A program made the position numbers and the translations under genes. A DNA stretch of 62,983 bases, taken from contig MHWW01000009.1 of assembly GCA_001824275.1 (NCBI GenBank), forward strand, positions 1 to 62,983, read 5' to 3'. The notes under the pieces are model-generated. The model saw only the letters and a list, made by a program, of their open reading frames with translations, was not told the origin of the DNA and made no database searches. Shown one piece after another: positions 96 through 54,421 of this stretch (position 1 is the first letter of the stretch; each line of letters begins with the position of its first letter). This DNA comes from Candidatus Zambryskibacteria bacterium RIFOXYC1_FULL_39_10 (GTDB taxonomy: Bacteria > Patescibacteriota > Minisyncoccia > Phycocordibacterales > WO2-35-19).

Positions 96-122
96 TAATT
101 ACAATGGCCGTCATTGTAATTT
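96..122. repeat. REP-like hairpin, left flank of RAYT-1
   Basis: TAATTACAATGGCCGTCATTGTAATTT; arms AATTACAATG/CATTGTAATT; identical 27-bp copy at 797-823. Confidence 0.9.
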
Positions 123-145
123 TGAAAGTTTGGTATAATCTATAT

Positions 146-799
146 ATGAATAACAGGGATTACAAAGAATTTGCTAAGGGAGAGATTTATCATATTTACA
201 ACAGGGGTGTTGGGAAAATGAATATATTCAAAGACGAGGAGGATTTTAAGGTATTTTTATTTCGTCTTAAAGAAAACCTATTCCCCGAATTAATAAAAAA
301 AGATAACCGACCAAAACTTTCATACAGAAGAAAAATTCTGCCTCCCAAATCTTTTGATTTAATCGCCTATTGTCTAATGCCAAATCATTTTCATTTATTA
401 ATAAAGCAGAATTCTGATATTTCGATAAGCACACTGGTCTTAAAATTATGTGGTGGATTTTCAAAATACTTTAACAAAAAACATGACAGAATCGGCTCAC
501 TTTTCCAGGATAAATTTAAAGCTGTAAAAATTTATAAAAATGATCAACTATTATGGACATCCTTATATATTCATGAAAATCCAATAAAGGCGGGTTTGAC
601 TGATAATTTGTCTGGTTATAAATGGAGTAGTTATTTAGATTATGCAGGATTGCAAAATAACAATCTCTGTAAAAAGGATATAATTTTAGAACAATTTAAT
701 TCTCCAAAAGCATACTTAAATTATTTCAGAGGAACAGAAAGCAAAAAAATTGAAAATAAAATGATTAGTTGTCTTGATTTATTAATTGATAAAGAATAA
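146..799 (+). mobile_element. REP-associated tyrosine transposase (RAYT, Y1/HUH family)
   Basis: YHIYNRG, CLMPNHFHLL (HUH), YIHENP catalytic Tyr, YKWSSY; flanked by direct-repeat hairpins; start moved to ATG 146. Confidence 0.88.
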
Positions 800-14843: not shown

Positions 14844-14868
14844 CCCCTCACCTTGCGAAGGTGAGGGG
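14844..14868. repeat. Palindrome related to the miniature-element family
   Basis: CCCCTCACCTTGCGAAGGTGAGGGG perfect hairpin. Confidence 0.6.
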
Positions 14869-16128: not shown

Positions 16129-17361
16129 TCATCGGTGGACAATTTTTTTAAGAGCAGAAATGAATTTATCTAGGTCAGATTTTTTGGTAGAGCGACCAAG
16201 AGTGATGCGCAGGGATGACGAACCACAATTTTTATTACCCAAACTTTCAATAACATAGGAACCATTTTCCAATGAAAGTGTGTGGCAGGCTGAAGCGGCC
16301 GAAACAGCGAAACCAAGTGTGTCTAGCTTAATAACTAAAAATTCTGAGTCTAATTTATTAGACTCATCCCGCGAAGCTTTAGCGAAGTGGGAAAGGCAAA
16401 TATTAATATTATTTGGAAGGCGATTTTCCAAACCACCATTTAGAGACAGCTGGGAAATTTCCCCGCCCGCAACGCTCTCGCTTGCGAGGCGGGCGGGTTT
16501 TAAAATTTTGGCAATAGCATAATCACGCAATTTTGTTAAACGAGCTGACTCCTTCTCTCTCATCTCAGTTGCAATTTCCAAAGCTTTGGCAAGCCCCACT
16601 GCCCCTGGCACATTTTCGGTGCCAGATCTTAAACCCCCTTCTTGCCCACCACCGAAAACAATTGATTCAATAGGAACTGAGTGTCTGACTGCCAAGATCC
16701 CCACCCCTCTCGGCCCATACATTTTAATACCGTCAAGAACCAATAGATCCGCTCCCAAACTTTCTAAAGAAATATTTTCATAGAGGACACTTTGACAGGC
16801 ATCTACCAGCAGGTATGCCCTGCTGGAATTTTCAATTTTCAATTTAAAATTTTCAATTACTTCTTTAATTTTCCGGATCGGCTGGATGGTACCAATTTCG
16901 TTGTTCCCATGTTGGATGACAACCAAAACTGTATTTTCTTTTATTTCTTTTTTTATTGATTCTGGACTGATCAAGCCCTTTTCGTTTGGCGAAATAAACG
17001 AGACTTCAACTTCTTTATTTTTTAGCAAATGTTTAATGGGTTCTAGTACTGCCGGATGTTCAATGGTTGAAGTTATAATGTGAGGAATTTTGGAATTACT
17101 TTTTTTGTATTTAAAAACTACTCCAAAAATTGCCAGATTCAATGATTCGGTGCCACCACTGGTAAAAAATATTTCATTTGCTTTGCAATGCAAAATCCGA
17201 GCAATTTTAATTCTCGCCTCTTCTAAAACTCTTTTTGCTATTTCTCCTTCTTGATGCAAAGAAGATGGGTTGGCCCAAAATTTTTGAGCTTTTTCCATCT
17301 CTTGTGCGACTTTCTTATCAATCGGAGTAATAGCGGCATAATCCAAAAACACCCTTGACAT
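16129..17361 (-). CDS. Cysteine desulfurase (IscS/NifS family)
   Basis: FLDYAAIT, FTSGGTES, EHPAV, NNEIGTIQ, KMYGPRG (PLP Lys), SAASAC (catalytic Cys). Confidence 0.88.
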   Translation of the reverse strand: MSRVFLDYAAITPIDKKVAQEMEKAQKFWANPSSLHQEGEIAKRVLEEARIKIARILHCKANEIFFTSGGTESLNLAIFGVVFKYKKSNSKIPHIITSTIEHPAVLEPIKHLLKNKEVEVSFISPNEKGLISPESIKKEIKENTVLVVIQHGNNEIGTIQPIRKIKEVIENFKLKIENSSRAYLLVDACQSVLYENISLESLGADLLVLDGIKMYGPRGVGILAVRHSVPIESIVFGGGQEGGLRSGTENVPGAVGLAKALEIATEMREKESARLTKLRDYAIAKILKPARLASESVAGGEISQLSLNGGLENRLPNNINICLSHFAKASRDESNKLDSEFLVIKLDTLGFAVSAASACHTLSLENGSYVIESLGNKNCGSSSLRITLGRSTKKSDLDKFISALKKIVHR

Positions 17362-27731: not shown

Positions 27732-27757
27732 TTGCCGAGATGGGCATCTTCTCGGCA
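27732..27757. repeat. REP-like hairpin, left flank of RAYT-2
   Basis: TTGCCGAGATGGGCATCTTCTCGGCA; exact reverse complement at 28464-28489. Confidence 0.9.
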
Positions 27758-27776
27758 ATTTGTTATAATTTATTTT

Positions 27777-28460
27777 ATGAACAATAGAGATTATAGAAAA
27801 TCTGGACCAAATTCCTTTCACCATATCTATAATAGAGGAAATGATAAAATGAATATATTTTTAGATAAAAATGATTATTATTCCTTTCTTGGATTATTAG
27901 AAGAAAATATATTAGGCGAAAAAGAACATTTTTCTTCAAAAATCTTTGAGCCCCTACCCAAATCTTCTCATCTGATAGGTAAAAAATACGTCCGAAAACT
28001 ACTACCATCAGGAAGTTTTGAAATTATATGCTTTTGTCTAATGCCCAATCATTTCCATTTATTAGTAAGACAGGTTAAGGAATTAGAAATAGGAAAATTG
28101 TTAAGCAAAGTTTGCACAAGTTATTCTAAAAGATTTAACAAAAAATATGAGCATATTGGTCATATATTCCAAGATCAATTTAAATCTGTTCTTGTAGAAG
28201 ATAATAATCAATTACTTTATCTATCCGCATATATACATTCAAATCCAAAAGTTAGTGCACTTGTTAAAAATATTGAGGACTGGAAATTTAGTAGTTATTT
28301 AAATTTTATAGAAAAGGAACAATACAAGCTGTGTAGTAAAAATATTGTTTTAGACCAATTTAACGATATTAAAAATTATAAAAAATTTGTTGAAGATGGT
28401 GTGGAAAAGATAAAATCAATAAAAGACTTAAACTACGCACTTCTTGACCAAGAATCCTAA
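27777..28460 (+). mobile_element. REP-associated tyrosine transposase (second)
   Basis: HHIYNRG, CLMPNHFHLL, YIHSNP, WKFSSY. Confidence 0.88.
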
Positions 28461-31019: not shown

Positions 31020-31113
31020 ATAACTCACCCTAAATCCCTCTCTTACAACAAGAGAGGGACTTCTGAAGCCCCCTTCCCTTGTTGTAAGGGAAGGGGGTGG
31101 GGGGATGAGTTAT
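31020..31113. mobile_element. MITE-like palindromic element (intergenic copy)
   Basis: ATAACTCACCC...GGATGAGTTAT imperfect terminal inverted repeats, two internal hairpins; near-copy at 38631-38727. Confidence 0.8.
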
Positions 31114-37883: not shown

Positions 37884-39047
37884 ATGATTATTTTAGGCAT
37901 AGAGACAAGTTGTGATGAAACGGCGGTGAGTGTAGTAGAAGCGGAAGGAGGCTTAGAAGACCTTCGCTTTAAGGTACTTGGAAGCGCTGTAAACAGCCAG
38001 ATAGAGATGCATAGGGAATTTGGTGGCGTAGTGCCAAACATAGCCAAGAGAGAGCATTTGAAAAACCTGCCCCTTGTACTCACGGAAGCACTTAAGGAAG
38101 CAGGTTTAATTTTCAATTTTCAATTTTCAATTTTCAATTCCGAAAATCCTAGGATTGATTTGATAGCTGTGACGGTGGGGCCTGGACTGGAACCAGCACT
38201 TTGGGCAGGTATAAAATTTGCAGAAGAACTTGGCCATAAATGGAATATTCCAGTTATTGGAACTAACCACATGGAAGGACATATAGCTTCGGTTTTGTTT
38301 AGCAAAACCGAAGCAAGTTTCGGATTTCCAGCAGTAGCACTGCTGGTCAGCGGGGGGCATACCGAACTTATATATTTAAATAATTGGTTAGAAAAAGAAA
38401 AAATTGGGCACACCCTAGATGATGCTGTCGGCGAGGCTTTTGATAAAGTCGCGAGGATGCTTGGACTCCCCTACCCAGGTGGACCAGAGATCTCTGCATT
38501 AGCAGAGAAAGCACGAAATTCGAATATCGAAATCCGAGACATAAAGTTTCCAAGGCCCATGCTTCATTCAGGGAATTTGAATTTTTCCTTTTCAGGTTTA
38601 AAGACCGCAGTGCTTTATTACATAAGAGGAATAACTCACCCTAAATCCCTCTCTTACCACAAGAGAGGGACTTTCGGAGAGCCCCCTTCTCTTGTTGTAG
38701 GAGAAGGGGGTCTGGGGGATGAGTTATCTGATTTACAAAAAATGGAGATCGCTCGTGAGTTTGAAGATGCAGTTATCGAAACACTTCTGACTAAAACTAA
38801 AAAAGCTATAGATCAATATAACCCCAAAACTTTAATAATTGGTGGTGGAGTGATTGCCAACAAGGCACTCAGAGAAAATTTATTGAATTTAGAAAAAGAT
38901 TATCCGGAATTAAAAATATTAATTCCGGAAAAATCTTTGACTACCGACAATGCAACTATGATAGCCGCCGCCGGATATATTGAATATTTGAGAGAGGGGG
39001 GAAATAAGGAGTTGAAAGCTCAGGGTAATTTGGATATTTCTTCTTAA
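37884..39047 (+). CDS. tsaD: tRNA N6-adenosine threonylcarbamoyltransferase
   Basis: LGIETSCDET, AVTVGPGL, NHMEGH, VSGGHT, DAVGEAFDK, FSFSGLKT, TDNATMIA. Confidence 0.95.
   Translation: MIILGIETSCDETAVSVVEAEGGLEDLRFKVLGSAVNSQIEMHREFGGVVPNIAKREHLKNLPLVLTEALKEAGLIFNFQFSIFNSENPRIDLIAVTVGPGLEPALWAGIKFAEELGHKWNIPVIGTNHMEGHIASVLFSKTEASFGFPAVALLVSGGHTELIYLNNWLEKEKIGHTLDDAVGEAFDKVARMLGLPYPGGPEISALAEKARNSNIEIRDIKFPRPMLHSGNLNFSFSGLKTAVLYYIRGITHPKSLSYHKRGTFGEPPSLVVGEGGLGDELSDLQKMEIAREFEDAVIETLLTKTKKAIDQYNPKTLIIGGGVIANKALRENLLNLEKDYPELKILIPEKSLTTDNATMIAAAGYIEYLREGGNKELKAQGNLDISS
38631..38727. mobile_element. MITE-like element inserted in frame in tsaD
   Basis: Near-copy of 31020-31113; encodes ITHPKSLSYHKRGTFGEPPSLVVGEGGLGDEL (32 codons) without a stop. 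Confidence 0.85.
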
Positions 39048-50569: not shown

Positions 50570-50768
50570 CTAACCTCACCCTTTCCCTCTCCTTACTTTA
50601 AGGAGAGGGAAACACATATTTACAACTCTCAGATTTATTTATGTTGCGCGATTTCCCCCTTAAGGTAAGGGGTGAGAATGCGGAGCATTTGCAAGACTTT
50701 TTGAGATATTTTTATATAATTAAAATATCCAAAAAGTATACAGTCCCTGTAAGGGATTAAGGGGGTTA
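50570..50768. mobile_element. Longer degenerate member of the palindromic element family
   Basis: CTAACCTCACCC left end, CCCTCTCCTTA-CTT-TAAGGAGAGGG hairpin, GGGGGTTA right end providing the glutaredoxin stop. Confidence 0.55.
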
Positions 50769-52611: not shown

Positions 52612-52760
52612 TCTAACCTTCCCCCTTCCCCTTCCTTACCTTAAGGAAGGGGTGACTGTTATTTATTATTCTCTCTGAACTATAGAACTAGTTGCACGGT
52701 ACCCTCCTTAAAGTAAGGAGGGTCGACACGAAGTGCGGGGAGGTTAGGTTTAGGGAGGCT
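52612..52760. repeat. Palindromic element-family remnants downstream of groEL
   Basis: CCCCTTCCTTA-CCT-TAAGGAAGGGG and CCCTCCTTA-AAG-TAAGGAGGG hairpins, CTAACC/GGTTAG ends. Confidence 0.55.
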
Positions 52761-52771
52761 GTTCGAGTTTT

Positions 52772-54421
<1,650 letters not shown>

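Follow-up and report, generated by a model that had tools for sequence, protein, structure and literature searches.

New protein sequence arising from selfish palindromic DNA is known mainly in Rickettsia, where RPE-1 to RPE-10 (Ogata et al., as summarised in PMC10969869) are, in the terms of that summary, in-frame palindromic repeats that add fold-compatible peptide segments. Repeats of the BoxC/PIT/TMECO type, which are intrastrand-triplex-motif repeats found in E. coli and elsewhere, have the motif C-block, N3, C-block, N3-6, G-block, or its complement (Holder et al., 2015, PMC4666352), a triplex being possible where the third block matches the hairpin, and TMECO was described as always intergenic and never tied to mobility genes (PMC4666352). 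In REP/REPIN-RAYT systems the base of the repeat hairpin bears a conserved tag, GTAG or CGTC (PMC3733652). Bacterial MITEs, such as QMITE of Coxiella (PMC5896051) and ERIC, Correia and MIRU (PMC10969869), are small non-coding derivatives with terminal inverted repeats.

The genome studied here is that of a groundwater bacterium belonging to the ultra-small Patescibacteria. Its repeats point to the creation of protein sequence from palindromic DNA on a large scale, affecting the core enzymes TsaD, PolA, UvrB, UvrC, Fmt and MnmA. In literature searches on Patescibacteria with palindromic elements or MITEs, and on DUF559, no paper was found that describes either such insertions or the association with DUF559 genes reported below.

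A palindromic repeat within tsaD

In the stretch of 62,983 nucleotides that was analysed (the window), a sequence-only reading had recognised a palindromic element in frame in tsaD and a near-identical copy at 31020-31113. Coordinates and sequences of both were found as described, with 91% identity (90.7% between the 97-nt tsaD copy and the 94-nt intergenic copy, with three 1-nt indels). The parts of the tsaD locus are as follows.

37884-39047, forward strand: tsaD, the host gene, with ATG at 37884 (TIGR03723, E 4e-102, 341 bits against a cut-off of 296)
38631-38727, forward strand: A-family palindromic element, 97 nt, TsaD residues 250-281, in-frame reading ITHPKSLSYHKRGTFGEPPSLVVGEGGLGDEL
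38631-38641, forward strand: left terminal inverted repeat ATAACTCACCC, found in every copy of the family; its boundaries are sharp and the flanks unrelated
38647-38669, forward strand: hairpin 1, CCCTCTCTT-ACCAC-AAGAGAGGG, 5' arm pyrimidine and 3' arm purine
38682-38710, forward strand: hairpin 2, CCCCCTTCTCTT-GTTGT-AGGAGAAGGGGG, which is hairpin 1 inverted, its loop being the reverse complement of ACAAC
38714-38727, forward strand: right terminal inverted repeat GGGGGATGAGTTAT, from the alignment of family copies

The element is thus laid out as terminal inverted repeats ATAACTCACCC/GGGTGAGTTAT around two inverted hairpins. Matches to a 23-nt pattern of its ends were confined, within the window, to the tsaD copy and the copy at 31020 (0 expected from 100 shuffles). 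The two copies share one fold, a three-way junction (-53.1 and -54.2 kcal/mol, z ~ -6), the stability of which was equalled by none of 200 shuffles, and a closing stem of 12 bp juxtaposes the two flanks. The tsaD element is free of stop codons in one of the six frames, which is the frame used by tsaD; the flanking peptides FSGLKTAVLYY and EIAREFEDA were borne out. The same frame is open in the untranslated copy at 31020. An assembly artefact is excluded, because Logan contigs obtained independently from groundwater or soil, at least three samples in all, cover 38300-39000 with no differences. The words sampled were all absent from metatranscriptomes of the same studies.

We consider it probable (about 0.8) that the 97-nt stretch is a non-autonomous mobile folded palindromic repeat in a surface loop of TsaD, transcribed and translated as a disordered extension of 28-31 residues. 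The data show directly the insertion, the repeat family to which it belongs, the empty sites, the frame, the conserved fold and the recurrence of such insertions in other genes. Its translation we infer from the frame statistics, and the mode of its movement is likewise an inference. In an AlphaFold2 model of TsaD (mean pLDDT 83) residues 255-278 score below 50, and the insert is predicted to be a disordered loop between the helices 237-251 and 283-312. The element would have entered between these two helices, of which one ends at residue 251 and the other starts at 283. It would be tolerated there because the site is the permissive tip of a helical hairpin, because the copy occupies the sole stop-free frame and because the hairpin arms lack stop codons, which are impossible in arms that are all-pyrimidine or all-purine. 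These arms encode Pro/Ser/Leu and Gly/Glu/Arg/Lys. Stop-free arms together with one open frame through the whole element may explain why the repeat can live in genes.

The longest tsaD ORF starts at GTG 37842; the orthologues start at MIILGIETSCDET. That this tsaD is non-functional is not suggested by the gene itself: it is intact, it is the sole TsaD match in a genome that is 98% complete, and the metal-binding HxxxH and the C-terminal TDNA motifs are invariant in all 21 aligned TsaD sequences. In bacteria the partners of TsaD in t6A synthesis are TsaC/Sua5, TsaB and TsaE. Profile searches with TIGR03725, TIGR00057 and PF01300 found no match in the genome itself, and PF01300 found none in 17 of 17 genomes of the genus; controls matched in 13-14 of 14 genomes. 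The description of tsaD as essential therefore needs care, since no TsaC/Sua5 or TsaB gene is detectable by profile in the genus, although the gene is, as noted, single-copy and intact.

The insertion site in related genomes

Alignment of the orthologues defined an empty site, and a loop of this length is not conserved among them: in 12 of 20 orthologues of the same family the position is taken by a linker of 12-18 residues. Three of these (G011, G016 and G001) read YYIKKIG.L.EKEKMEIAREF without interruption, and the other nine have a linker in the same range of length. E. coli TsaD has 4 residues where this TsaD has 33 (residue 223 aligns to query residue 248 and residue 228 to 282), and the segment is absent from E. 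coli and from all solved TsaD, Kae1 and Qri7 structures. The element does span 32 codons, as the sequence-only reading implied, but the residues added are fewer, the net gain being 28 codons (84 nt) when the nearest empty orthologues are the reference and 31 codons (93 nt) when it is the commonest linker (12 residues). An element of 97 nt with a net gain of 84 nt does not fit a simple cut-and-paste insertion. In the nearest empty orthologues ATTGGTGAATTAG stands at exactly the position of the right repeat and resembles AT plus that repeat; it may be a pseudo-target, may have been left behind by a loss, or may be a chance likeness (~1e-3 to 2.5e-2 by our own estimate). At the empty site of fmt no convincing repeat-like native sequence was seen, so that the resemblance in tsaD is a single case. 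A TA or ATAT target with duplication was considered and rejected, as no such sequence occurs in register at the empty tsaD sites and no direct repeats flank 15 copies.

One relative, G006, carries the same element at the tsaD site, with compensatory changes in the stems and a like fold, and at least seven other relatives have different palindromic inserts at the same position. Permissive loops that are struck repeatedly by unrelated elements may aid the modelling and annotation of the 'extra loops' of CPR proteins. In the TsaD tree 2 of 18 inner branches are supported, and this genome and G006 are not sisters. One gain, two gains, or a gain followed by loss are all compatible with the tree and cannot be told apart; mapping of gains and losses was dropped, the resolution being too poor.

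Between this genome and G006 the insert is 53% identical in amino acids and the rest of the protein 79%, whereas nucleotide identity is 72% in the insert and 73% in the rest of tsaD. Synonymous changes make up 26% of the changed codons in the insert and 64% elsewhere. The constraint on the insert is one on the nucleic acid and not on the peptide, because amino-acid identity falls in the insert while nucleotide identity is about equal and both copies fold alike. Stem pairing is maintained by CG<->UA double changes across the copies and in the orthologous G006 copy. The alignment of copies shows two-sided changes in 7 pairs and 19 cells. Of 500 shuffles, none attained as many as 19 such cells, as high a covariation score or as large a share of paired cells; as many as 7 such pairs were reached by 2.

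Compensatory changes that keep both stems, here and in G006, would also suit hairpins that have been co-opted, with selection keeping the stems for an RNA function (ribosome pausing between the TsaD subdomains or mRNA stabilisation) or keeping a protein interaction loop. The intergenic copies, placed exactly at gene ends, suggest in addition a role at the 3' end of mRNAs. We nevertheless think co-option unlikely, given close relatives that lack the insert or have unrelated ones, and a peptide that is poorly conserved and predicted to be disordered. Moreover, quasi-palindrome-templated repair or gene conversion from other copies can preserve stem pairing without selection, and could have maintained the stems in this family. 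On the reading preferred here, the hairpins would stay paired either because the enzyme of the element, the DUF559 nuclease discussed below, recognises the fold or by way of palindrome-templated repair.

The repeat family in the genome and its relatives

The 744-kb genome contains ~100 hairpins in which one arm is pyrimidine and the other purine. Among GC-rich perfect hairpins the 5' arm is all-pyrimidine in 77 and all-purine in 1. The A-family has five full copies and partial ones in its own genome; the elements are 50-102 nt long and without coding capacity. Two copies (C6:3688-3773 and C14:5885-5970) are identical at 85 of 86 positions and have unrelated flanks, which indicates recent copying. 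In the flanks of 15 aligned copies no target-site duplication was found. Further members in the window are as follows.

14844-14868, unstranded: superfamily hairpin CCCCTCACC-TTGCGAA-GGTGAGGGG, in which the terminal-repeat motif itself is paired, a TMECO-like layout; ~10 copies in the genome
19372-19412, forward strand: half element made up of left repeat ATAACTCACCCC and a single hairpin, CCCCTCTCTTACATTAAGAGAGGGG; the right repeat is missing
31020-31113, forward strand: intergenic A-family copy, 94 nt, hairpins at 31036-31058 and 31069-31097
50585-50609, unstranded: C-rich superfamily hairpin, intergenic, from the hairpin search
52628-52722, unstranded: two-hairpin superfamily member (CCCCTTCCTTACCTTAAGGAAGGGG ... 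CCCTCCTTAAAGTAAGGAGGG), from the hairpin search; both hairpins recur at C5:26348-26441 and C5:90303-90395

The search for further coding copies yielded ~17 related hairpins in frame in 13 genes, the host ORF being open in every case. NCBIfam gave a name to eight of the hosts (polA, an rluA-family gene, fmt, a beta-CASP RNase, mnmA, uvrC, uvrB and an ADP-forming acetate-CoA ligase). The analogy with the Rickettsia elements, proposed for tsaD by the sequence-only reading, therefore holds more widely than was claimed. Genic copies are apparently selected against: 17-28 of 100 hairpins lie in ORFs, though ORFs make up ~86% of the genome.

The intergenic copy at 31020 is bordered on one side by the start of the minus-strand gene gyrA (30976) and on the other by the end of an ORF of 115 aa, and its terminal TTA (31110-31112) is the TAA stop of that ORF. 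In 12-13 of 18 intergenic copies the terminal TAA is at the same time the stop codon of the adjoining gene. MIRU-type units behave similarly, overlapping stop and start codons of adjacent genes. The 31020 copy had been taken to show the donor family. It is a member of the family but not a recent donor, since G016 has a copy at the orthologous place (93% identity, against an average of 85% over the whole aligned stretch).

A-family matches were present in 23 of 41 related genomes, all of them among the 25 genomes of family f1, and no match was found in 16 other families of the order. The hairpin CCCCTCTCC-N3-8-GGAGAGGGG, with 21 copies here, occurs elsewhere at most twice per genome and in 5 of 200 other genomes of the class. 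A class-wide spread of this hairpin was accordingly rejected, and its near-absence across the class argues for a lineage-specific expansion.

The family is a genuine parallel to the Rickettsia palindromic elements, with a build like that of BoxC/TMECO repeats. Like RPE, as these are presented in PMC10969869, it consists of short palindromic repeats in a small genome, placed in frame in unrelated housekeeping genes as well as between genes. Its host, however, is a member of the Patescibacteria, and the element works like an RPE with no claim to membership by sequence. It measures 50-100 nt, against the ~150 bp given for RPE in that summary (PMC10969869), has strict pyrimidine/purine arms and is bounded by defined terminal inverted repeats, which provide neighbouring genes with stop codons. 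It also has full-length relatives with DUF559, whereas the account of RPE in PMC10969869 names no enzyme partner.

With the BoxC/TMECO repeats it shares the order of C-block, short spacer, C-block, loop and G-block, for example AACCTCACCCC-CTA-CCCCCTCTCC-TTAGCTAA-GGAGAGGGG at C2:78263-78304. It shares as well the inverted doublets and a copy number that differs between close relatives. The terminal block CCTCACCC equals positions 2-9 of the TMECO block CCCTCNCCC, and hairpins such as CCCCTCACC-TTGCGAA-GGTGAGGGG are TMECO-like. It differs in that ~17% of the hairpins are in frame in genes and that DUF559 genes are flanked by repeats. In the aligned copies the terminal block is constant while the stems change CG<->TA, and as it does not covary with the arms, triplex pairing is unsupported by these data. 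The terminal inverted repeats, small size and lack of coding capacity are those of bacterial MITEs, with which it also shares the possibility of in-frame fusion with host ORFs; in contrast to these, no target-site duplication was found here, and the candidate parent carries a nuclease, DUF559 being no known transposase.

DUF559 nuclease genes and their proposed role in the spread of the repeat

Hairpins of the repeat superfamily flank all seven DUF559 nuclease loci of the genome, with 14 hairpins within 400 nt of these loci against 1.04 expected (0 of 20,000 permutations). An adjoining hairpin of this kind was present in nine of nine DUF559 loci sampled from relatives. In G024:C49 a unit of 462 nt is composed of ATAACTCACCC, a hairpin, the DUF559 gene, a hairpin and GGGGGTGAGTTAT, its ends being the same as those of the A element. 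A DUF559 cassette of the genome itself (C5:65754-66595) has the ends ATAACCTCACCCC and GGGGTGAGGTTAT, near-identical to the element ends. Two of the DUF559 genes lie at C2:78354-78701 and C5:66069-66356. Copy numbers of DUF559 and of the element correlate across 41 genomes (Spearman 0.85) and within family f1 (0.70), the correlation across genomes being confounded by relatedness. The E. coli control genome had no match to the PF04480 profile. The element is still present in G024, which has one DUF559 gene, and in G003 and G022, which have none.

Because the DUF559 gene of G024 sits between the hairpins of a same-ended element, the short copies look like MITE-type derivatives of DUF559-bearing elements. 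We suggest, tentatively and at less than even odds, that the A-family and its C-rich relatives are non-autonomous offspring of ~0.46-0.84-kb selfish elements of which the sole enzyme is a DUF559 (Vsr-fold, PD-(D/E)xK) nuclease. A transposase-bearing parent element was not found; the candidate parent carries the nuclease only. The short elements would be internal-deletion (MITE-like) derivatives of the 0.46-0.84-kb elements, their spread being driven by the DUF559 nuclease. This enzyme would recognise the folded end (terminal block plus hairpin), and breaks at true or look-alike ends would be repaired by copying the element from elsewhere. Such breaking and copying would explain why target duplications are absent, why the element landed in tsaD beside a native sequence like its terminal repeat with a net gain of element minus repeat, and why copies are placed at gene ends with the TAA of the element serving as stop codon. 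If true, the system would correspond to the REPIN-RAYT partnership with a nuclease alone as partner, and would give a shared function to two orphans, the BoxC/TMECO-type repeats and the DUF559 family. The link offers a testable candidate partner for BoxC/PIT/TMECO-type repeats, the origin and spread of which have been debated since the 1990s.

The likeness to REP/REPIN lies in the high-copy GC-rich hairpins, in the inverted doublets and in the proposed partnership of a repeat with one nuclease gene, domesticated or selfish, that has the repeats on its own flanks. The GTAG/CGTC tag was absent in the alignment of 15 copies. The flanked gene here is a PD-(D/E)xK (Vsr-fold) DUF559 gene and not one for an HUH Y1 enzyme, whereas the Y1 genes are flanked by other hairpins. 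Mobilisation by RAYT-like Y1 (HUH) transposases, as for REP/REPIN, was nonetheless weighed. Three RAYT-like Y1_Tnp genes are present in the genome, two of them in the window (104-799 and 27732-28460) and one at C3:30320-30949, along with two tnpA genes of the IS200 type; the two-hairpin form is a REPIN-like inverted doublet, and Y1 counts follow element counts with a Spearman coefficient of 0.57 (0.49 within family f1). Yet the hairpins that flank both Y1 genes of the window are of another, non-C-rich kind, and no C-rich hairpin lies near the third (C3). Y1 genes are also common in sister families that lack the element, and G024 has 7 element matches with zero Y1 genes. With flanking hairpins that differ, a weak correlation and a much tighter association of DUF559, mobilisation by RAYT was downgraded and seems to us improbable.

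Two explanations of the tsaD segment would do without insertion into the gene or without translation. If the loop were an old lineage-specific part of TsaD, lost in the orthologues with short linkers, the repeat would have spread from a piece of tsaD; ATTGGTGAATTAG at the nearest empty sites does look like a remnant of the right repeat, and the gene tree is poorly resolved. That origin is very doubtful, however, as copies of this unit, with the same sharp ends, occur at many unrelated loci across 23 genomes and the segment is missing, as described above, from E. coli TsaD and from all solved TsaD, Kae1 and Qri7 structures. The unrelated inserts (at least eight) at the same site fit repeated entry and not one old loop. 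Removal before translation, by excision at the closing 12-bp stem with re-joining of the RNA or by ribosome bypass, is least credible of all: the terminal stem does join both flanks, but no selection for frame would then be expected, whereas the one open frame of six is used, the net length is a multiple of three, the ~17 genic hairpins in 13 genes are likewise open, and an Rfam search found no intron or ribozyme family (a mir-5470 match at E 0.12 was at chance level). The tryptic peptides expected from the insert include SLSYHK and GTFGEPPSLVVGEGGLGDELSDLQK.

The element in tsaD and its insertion site

The source genome, of a groundwater Patescibacteria member (744 kb, 25 contigs, 98% complete, ~39% G+C), carries a single tsaD gene, the product of which matched TsaD (TIGR03723, E 4e-102). 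The features concerned are:

37884-39047, + strand: tsaD open reading frame
38631-38727: 97-nt element in frame in tsaD, ATAACTCACCCTAAAT-CCCTCTCTTACCACAAGAGAGGG-ACTTTCGGAGAG-CCCCCTTCTCTTGTTGTAGGAGAAGGGGG-TCTGGGGGATGAGTTAT
31020-31113: lone copy of the element

The lone copy was built on the same plan as the tsaD copy and was 90.7% identical to it, and a 23-nt end pattern had no match in the window besides these two, none being expected by chance. For both copies the predicted fold was a three-way junction, in which the terminal inverted repeats form a 12-bp closing stem and enclose two hairpins (-53.1 and -54.2 kcal/mol for the tsaD and the lone copy; z ~ -6). The hairpin loops ACAAC and GTTGT are mutual reverse complements, which makes the element an inverted doublet. 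Logan contigs from independent samples spanned the insert with 0 differences. The sequence-only reading had described a palindromic element in frame in tsaD with a near-identical lone copy, and both were borne out by sequence, fold, profile match and these contigs.

TsaD was fetched from 40 related genomes (numbered from G001) and 20 were aligned with our sequence. The alignment defined the empty site: E. coli has four residues (224-227) versus 33 in this protein, nine of the 20 relatives have a 12-residue linker from LYY to AREFED, G011, G016 and G001 have 15 residues (IKKIG.L.EKEKMEI) and one relative has 18. G006 shared both the element and its position, and in seven relatives the site held inserts of 26-99 residues unrelated to it. 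By sequence comparison, the segment in tsaD is an insertion. It had been said to add 32 residues; the 97-nt element stands, but the net gain is only 84 nt relative to the 15-residue linkers and 93 nt relative to the 12-residue ones. The HxxxH and TDNA motifs were invariant in all 21 sequences. As modelled by AlphaFold2 (mean pLDDT 83), the insert is a low-confidence loop (pLDDT <50 at residues 255-278) between helices 237-251 and 283-312.

The 97-nt element, with its net gain of 84 nt, stands in place of 13 native bases (ATTGGTGAATTAG in G016). These resemble AT plus the right terminal repeat (GGTGAGTTAT in G006) at 8/10 positions in exact register, for which we estimate a chance of ~1e-3 for the register and of 2.5e-2 over ~60 positions/strands. 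Three readings are possible: the element entered beside a pseudo-end through homology-guided copying and so displaced no native sequence; the bases are a footprint left when G011, G016 and G001 lost the element; or they reflect coincidence and selection for the Glu-Leu that opens the next helix. A comparable terminal-repeat signature was looked for at the fmt insertion site and none was found.

Two further variable sites were seen in TsaD. At one, a tandem heptamer AATTTTC (38108-38139, ~4.5 units) encodes IFNFQFSIFNS; it is absent from E. coli and several relatives, and such arrays also occur at 16827-16858 and 53218-53249. At the other (alignment columns 440-457) a 17-residue segment, GTFWDRGSSKVPFDT, is patchily present in G006, G013, G019 and G005 (L002, L005, L006, L010) and partly in G011 (L008), this genome being without it. 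TsaC/Sua5 (TIGR00057, PF01300) and TsaB (TIGR03725) were not detectable in this genome and 16 others of the genus, with profiles that matched in 13-14 of 14 known genomes; TsaD is conserved in 39/41 relatives despite this absence in the genus. A 2023 survey lists sua5/tsaC absence for obligate ectosymbiotic DPANN archaea only (PMC10321239).

Conservation of the fold and the open frame

Five copies with both ends (90, 94, 97, 102 and 166 nt) were found in this genome, together with one-hairpin and half forms. Matches occurred in 23/41 related genomes, all of the same taxonomic family (8/9 of its genera), and none in 16 other families of the order. Fifteen aligned copies had sharp ends (ATAAC...GTTAT) and unrelated flanks, and no target duplication was seen around them. 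Their three helices were paired in 95% of cells, with two-sided changes at seven pairs (19 cells, all CG<->UA). In 500 shuffles, 19 cells, the covariation score and the paired share were never reached, and seven pairs were reached twice; slid controls gave 1-5 two-sided cells. Two 86-nt copies on other contigs (C6:3688-3773 and C14:5885-5970) differed by one base and had unrelated flanks, which points to recent copying.

The tsaD copies of this genome and G006 differed by paired changes in both stems. Amino-acid identity was 53% in the insert versus 79% in the remainder of TsaD, nucleotide identity in the protein-guided alignment was 72% versus 73%, and only 26% of changed codons were synonymous versus 64% elsewhere. 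Taken together, these patterns are those of a folded nucleic acid whose translation is incidental, not of a selected peptide. The stems may stay paired through selection, through conversion from other copies or through palindrome-templated repair.

The whole element is stop-free in one of six frames, which is the one used by tsaD. The untranslated copy at 31020-31113 is open in the same frame, and the open frame is therefore a property of the family. The hairpin arms are made up of C/T alone (5') or G/A alone (3'), a composition that rules out TAA, TAG and TGA in every frame of both strands. An unbiased scan for perfect hairpins (stem >=9, loop 3-9) found among GC-rich ones 77 with an all-pyrimidine 5' arm and 1 with an all-purine 5' arm.

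Copies within genes and at gene ends

This genome contained 100 C-rich perfect hairpins. The commonest core, CCCCTCTCC-N3-8-GGAGAGGGG, occurred 21 times, and elsewhere in 5/200 other genomes of the class, at most twice in each. The search for further coding copies that had been proposed found ~17 hairpins well inside 13 long ORFs, eight of which were named by NCBIfam:

DNA polymerase I
RluA-family pseudouridine synthase
Fmt (two hairpins)
beta-CASP ribonuclease
MnmA
UvrC
UvrB (two hairpins)
ADP-forming acetate-CoA ligase

The encoded peptides are alike (e.g. TSP..PLPSP..GEG..GEV) because the terminal block ACC-TCA-CCC and its partner GGT-GAG-GT are read in one frame. ORFs make up ~86% of the genome but hold 17-28% of the hairpins, so most genic insertions are evidently lost. 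The proposal that protein sequence is created here as by Rickettsia palindromic elements (RPEs) is supported, and the process extends across the lineage, the tsaD insertion being one case of it.

Other occupants of the tsaD site in relatives
G004, G020, G021, G008: other C-rich hairpin elements (ends ACCTCACCCC and GGGGTGAGGT in G004)
G013, G018: common three-hairpin insert of a different type
G015, G008: common 72-residue insert, with 81 nt added in G008
G019: yet another element

In Fmt, the loop at residues 153-196 of this genome's protein (two hairpins) was empty in G003, G007, G014, G006 and G016 and half-filled in G010; in others it was occupied by at least three element types. The two loops are either exceptionally permissive or insertion-attracting. 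The tsaD element of G019 (L006) and the fmt insert of G011/G009 (L044/L046) were ~85% identical over ~100 nt; this second repeat (core AAATGCACGGATATTTTCTTGCTAGAAAATTCCT), unrelated to the present family, is carried in frame by tsaD in one genus and by fmt in another. In G002 the fmt loop is filled by a CAACTTT array similar to the tsaD heptamers.

In 6/8 copies of this genome outside ORFs, the TAA of the terminal ATAA/TTAT was the stop codon of the neighbouring gene:

C1:3836-4001
C2:46921-46970
C9 (the window):31020-31113, 115-aa ORF upstream of gyrA
C11:29962-30047
C11:55216-55305
C22:17601-17702

In a seventh, the gene stop lay 14 nt within the element, and in 6/10 copies from relatives the terminal TAA closed an open frame of >120 codons. 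Such placement points either to entry at the ends of genes or to a function immediately after the stop codon. The copy at 31020-31113 had been taken to show the donor family. It is a family member; however, G016 has an orthologous copy, with 93% identity in the element versus a mean of 85% over the whole aligned stretch, so that the copy is old and conserved and no recent donor.

Known systems and the DUF559 genes

RPEs were singled out in a 2024 review of MITEs for frequent in-frame fusions (PMC10969869), and the present element behaves alike. It also matches the build of the BoxC/PIT/TMECO motif (CCCTCNCCC-N3-6-GGGNGAGGG-N3-GGGNGAGGG), which in E. coli is described as always intergenic and never tied to mobility genes (PMC4666352); triplex pairing had no covariation support among the aligned copies of our family. 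A textbook MITE was rejected because neither a target duplication nor a parent with a transposase was seen, and a canonical REP because the GTAG/CGTC tag is missing and the RAYT-like genes bear other hairpins. No published description of in-frame palindromic elements in Patescibacteria, nor a published link between DUF559 and repeats, was found in the literature searched. New here are the stop-codon placement of intergenic copies and the DUF559 association; the former and the DUF559-bearing full-length relatives are the most valuable leads.

A search for terminal-repeat pairs 0.3-4 kb apart yielded C2:78263-78790 and C5:65754-66595, each with one DUF559 protein of 116-123 residues (PF04480, E 5e-32 and 4e-34; also REase_MTES_1575). 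All seven DUF559 loci of this genome had C-rich hairpins within 400 nt (14 hairpins versus 1.04 expected; 0/20,000 permutations), and a hairpin stood beside the gene at 9/9 loci sampled from relatives. In G024 (contig C49) an element with the family's ends, 462 nt in total, encloses the gene precisely between its two hairpins, in the order ATAACTCACCC...CCCTCCCTTACTACAAGGGAGGG (gene) CCCCTCCCTTGTAGTAAGGGAGGGG TGGGGGTGAGTTAT. Its left spacer CACTTCGTGT is shared with C22:17601-17702, and the two would have the relationship expected of a parent and its MITE. DUF559 was present in 21/25 genomes of the family, with one strong match across the 16 other families of the order. Its copy number correlated with that of the element (Spearman 0.85 overall, 0.70 within the family), as did that of Y1 transposase (0.57 and 0.49), all values being confounded by relatedness. 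DUF559 is a candidate partner enzyme of the element, in a mechanism of spread that we infer.

Strong DUF559 matches (E ~1e-34 to 1e-36) also lay inside open frames of 542-1180 residues in relatives:

G019:C28:1013-1324
G004:C9:70370-70681
G001:C21:32849-33160
G021:C17:67913-68227
G004:C13:59198-59509

Through their stop-free hairpin ends, nuclease cassettes may be translated in frame as part of large host genes. Besides DUF559, the C5 cassette has an extra stretch with three tandem AACCTCACCCC blocks (65715-65766) and a terminator-like hairpin (65823-65845); this stretch may contain a small ORF. Three RAYT-like Y1_Tnp genes (231-242 residues) were present (window 104-799 and 27732-28460; C3:30320-30949), those in the window being flanked by their own non-C-rich hairpins (87-122/788-823; 27732-27761/28460-28489), together with two canonical IS200-type tnpA genes (C16:8126-8488; C7:33-395).
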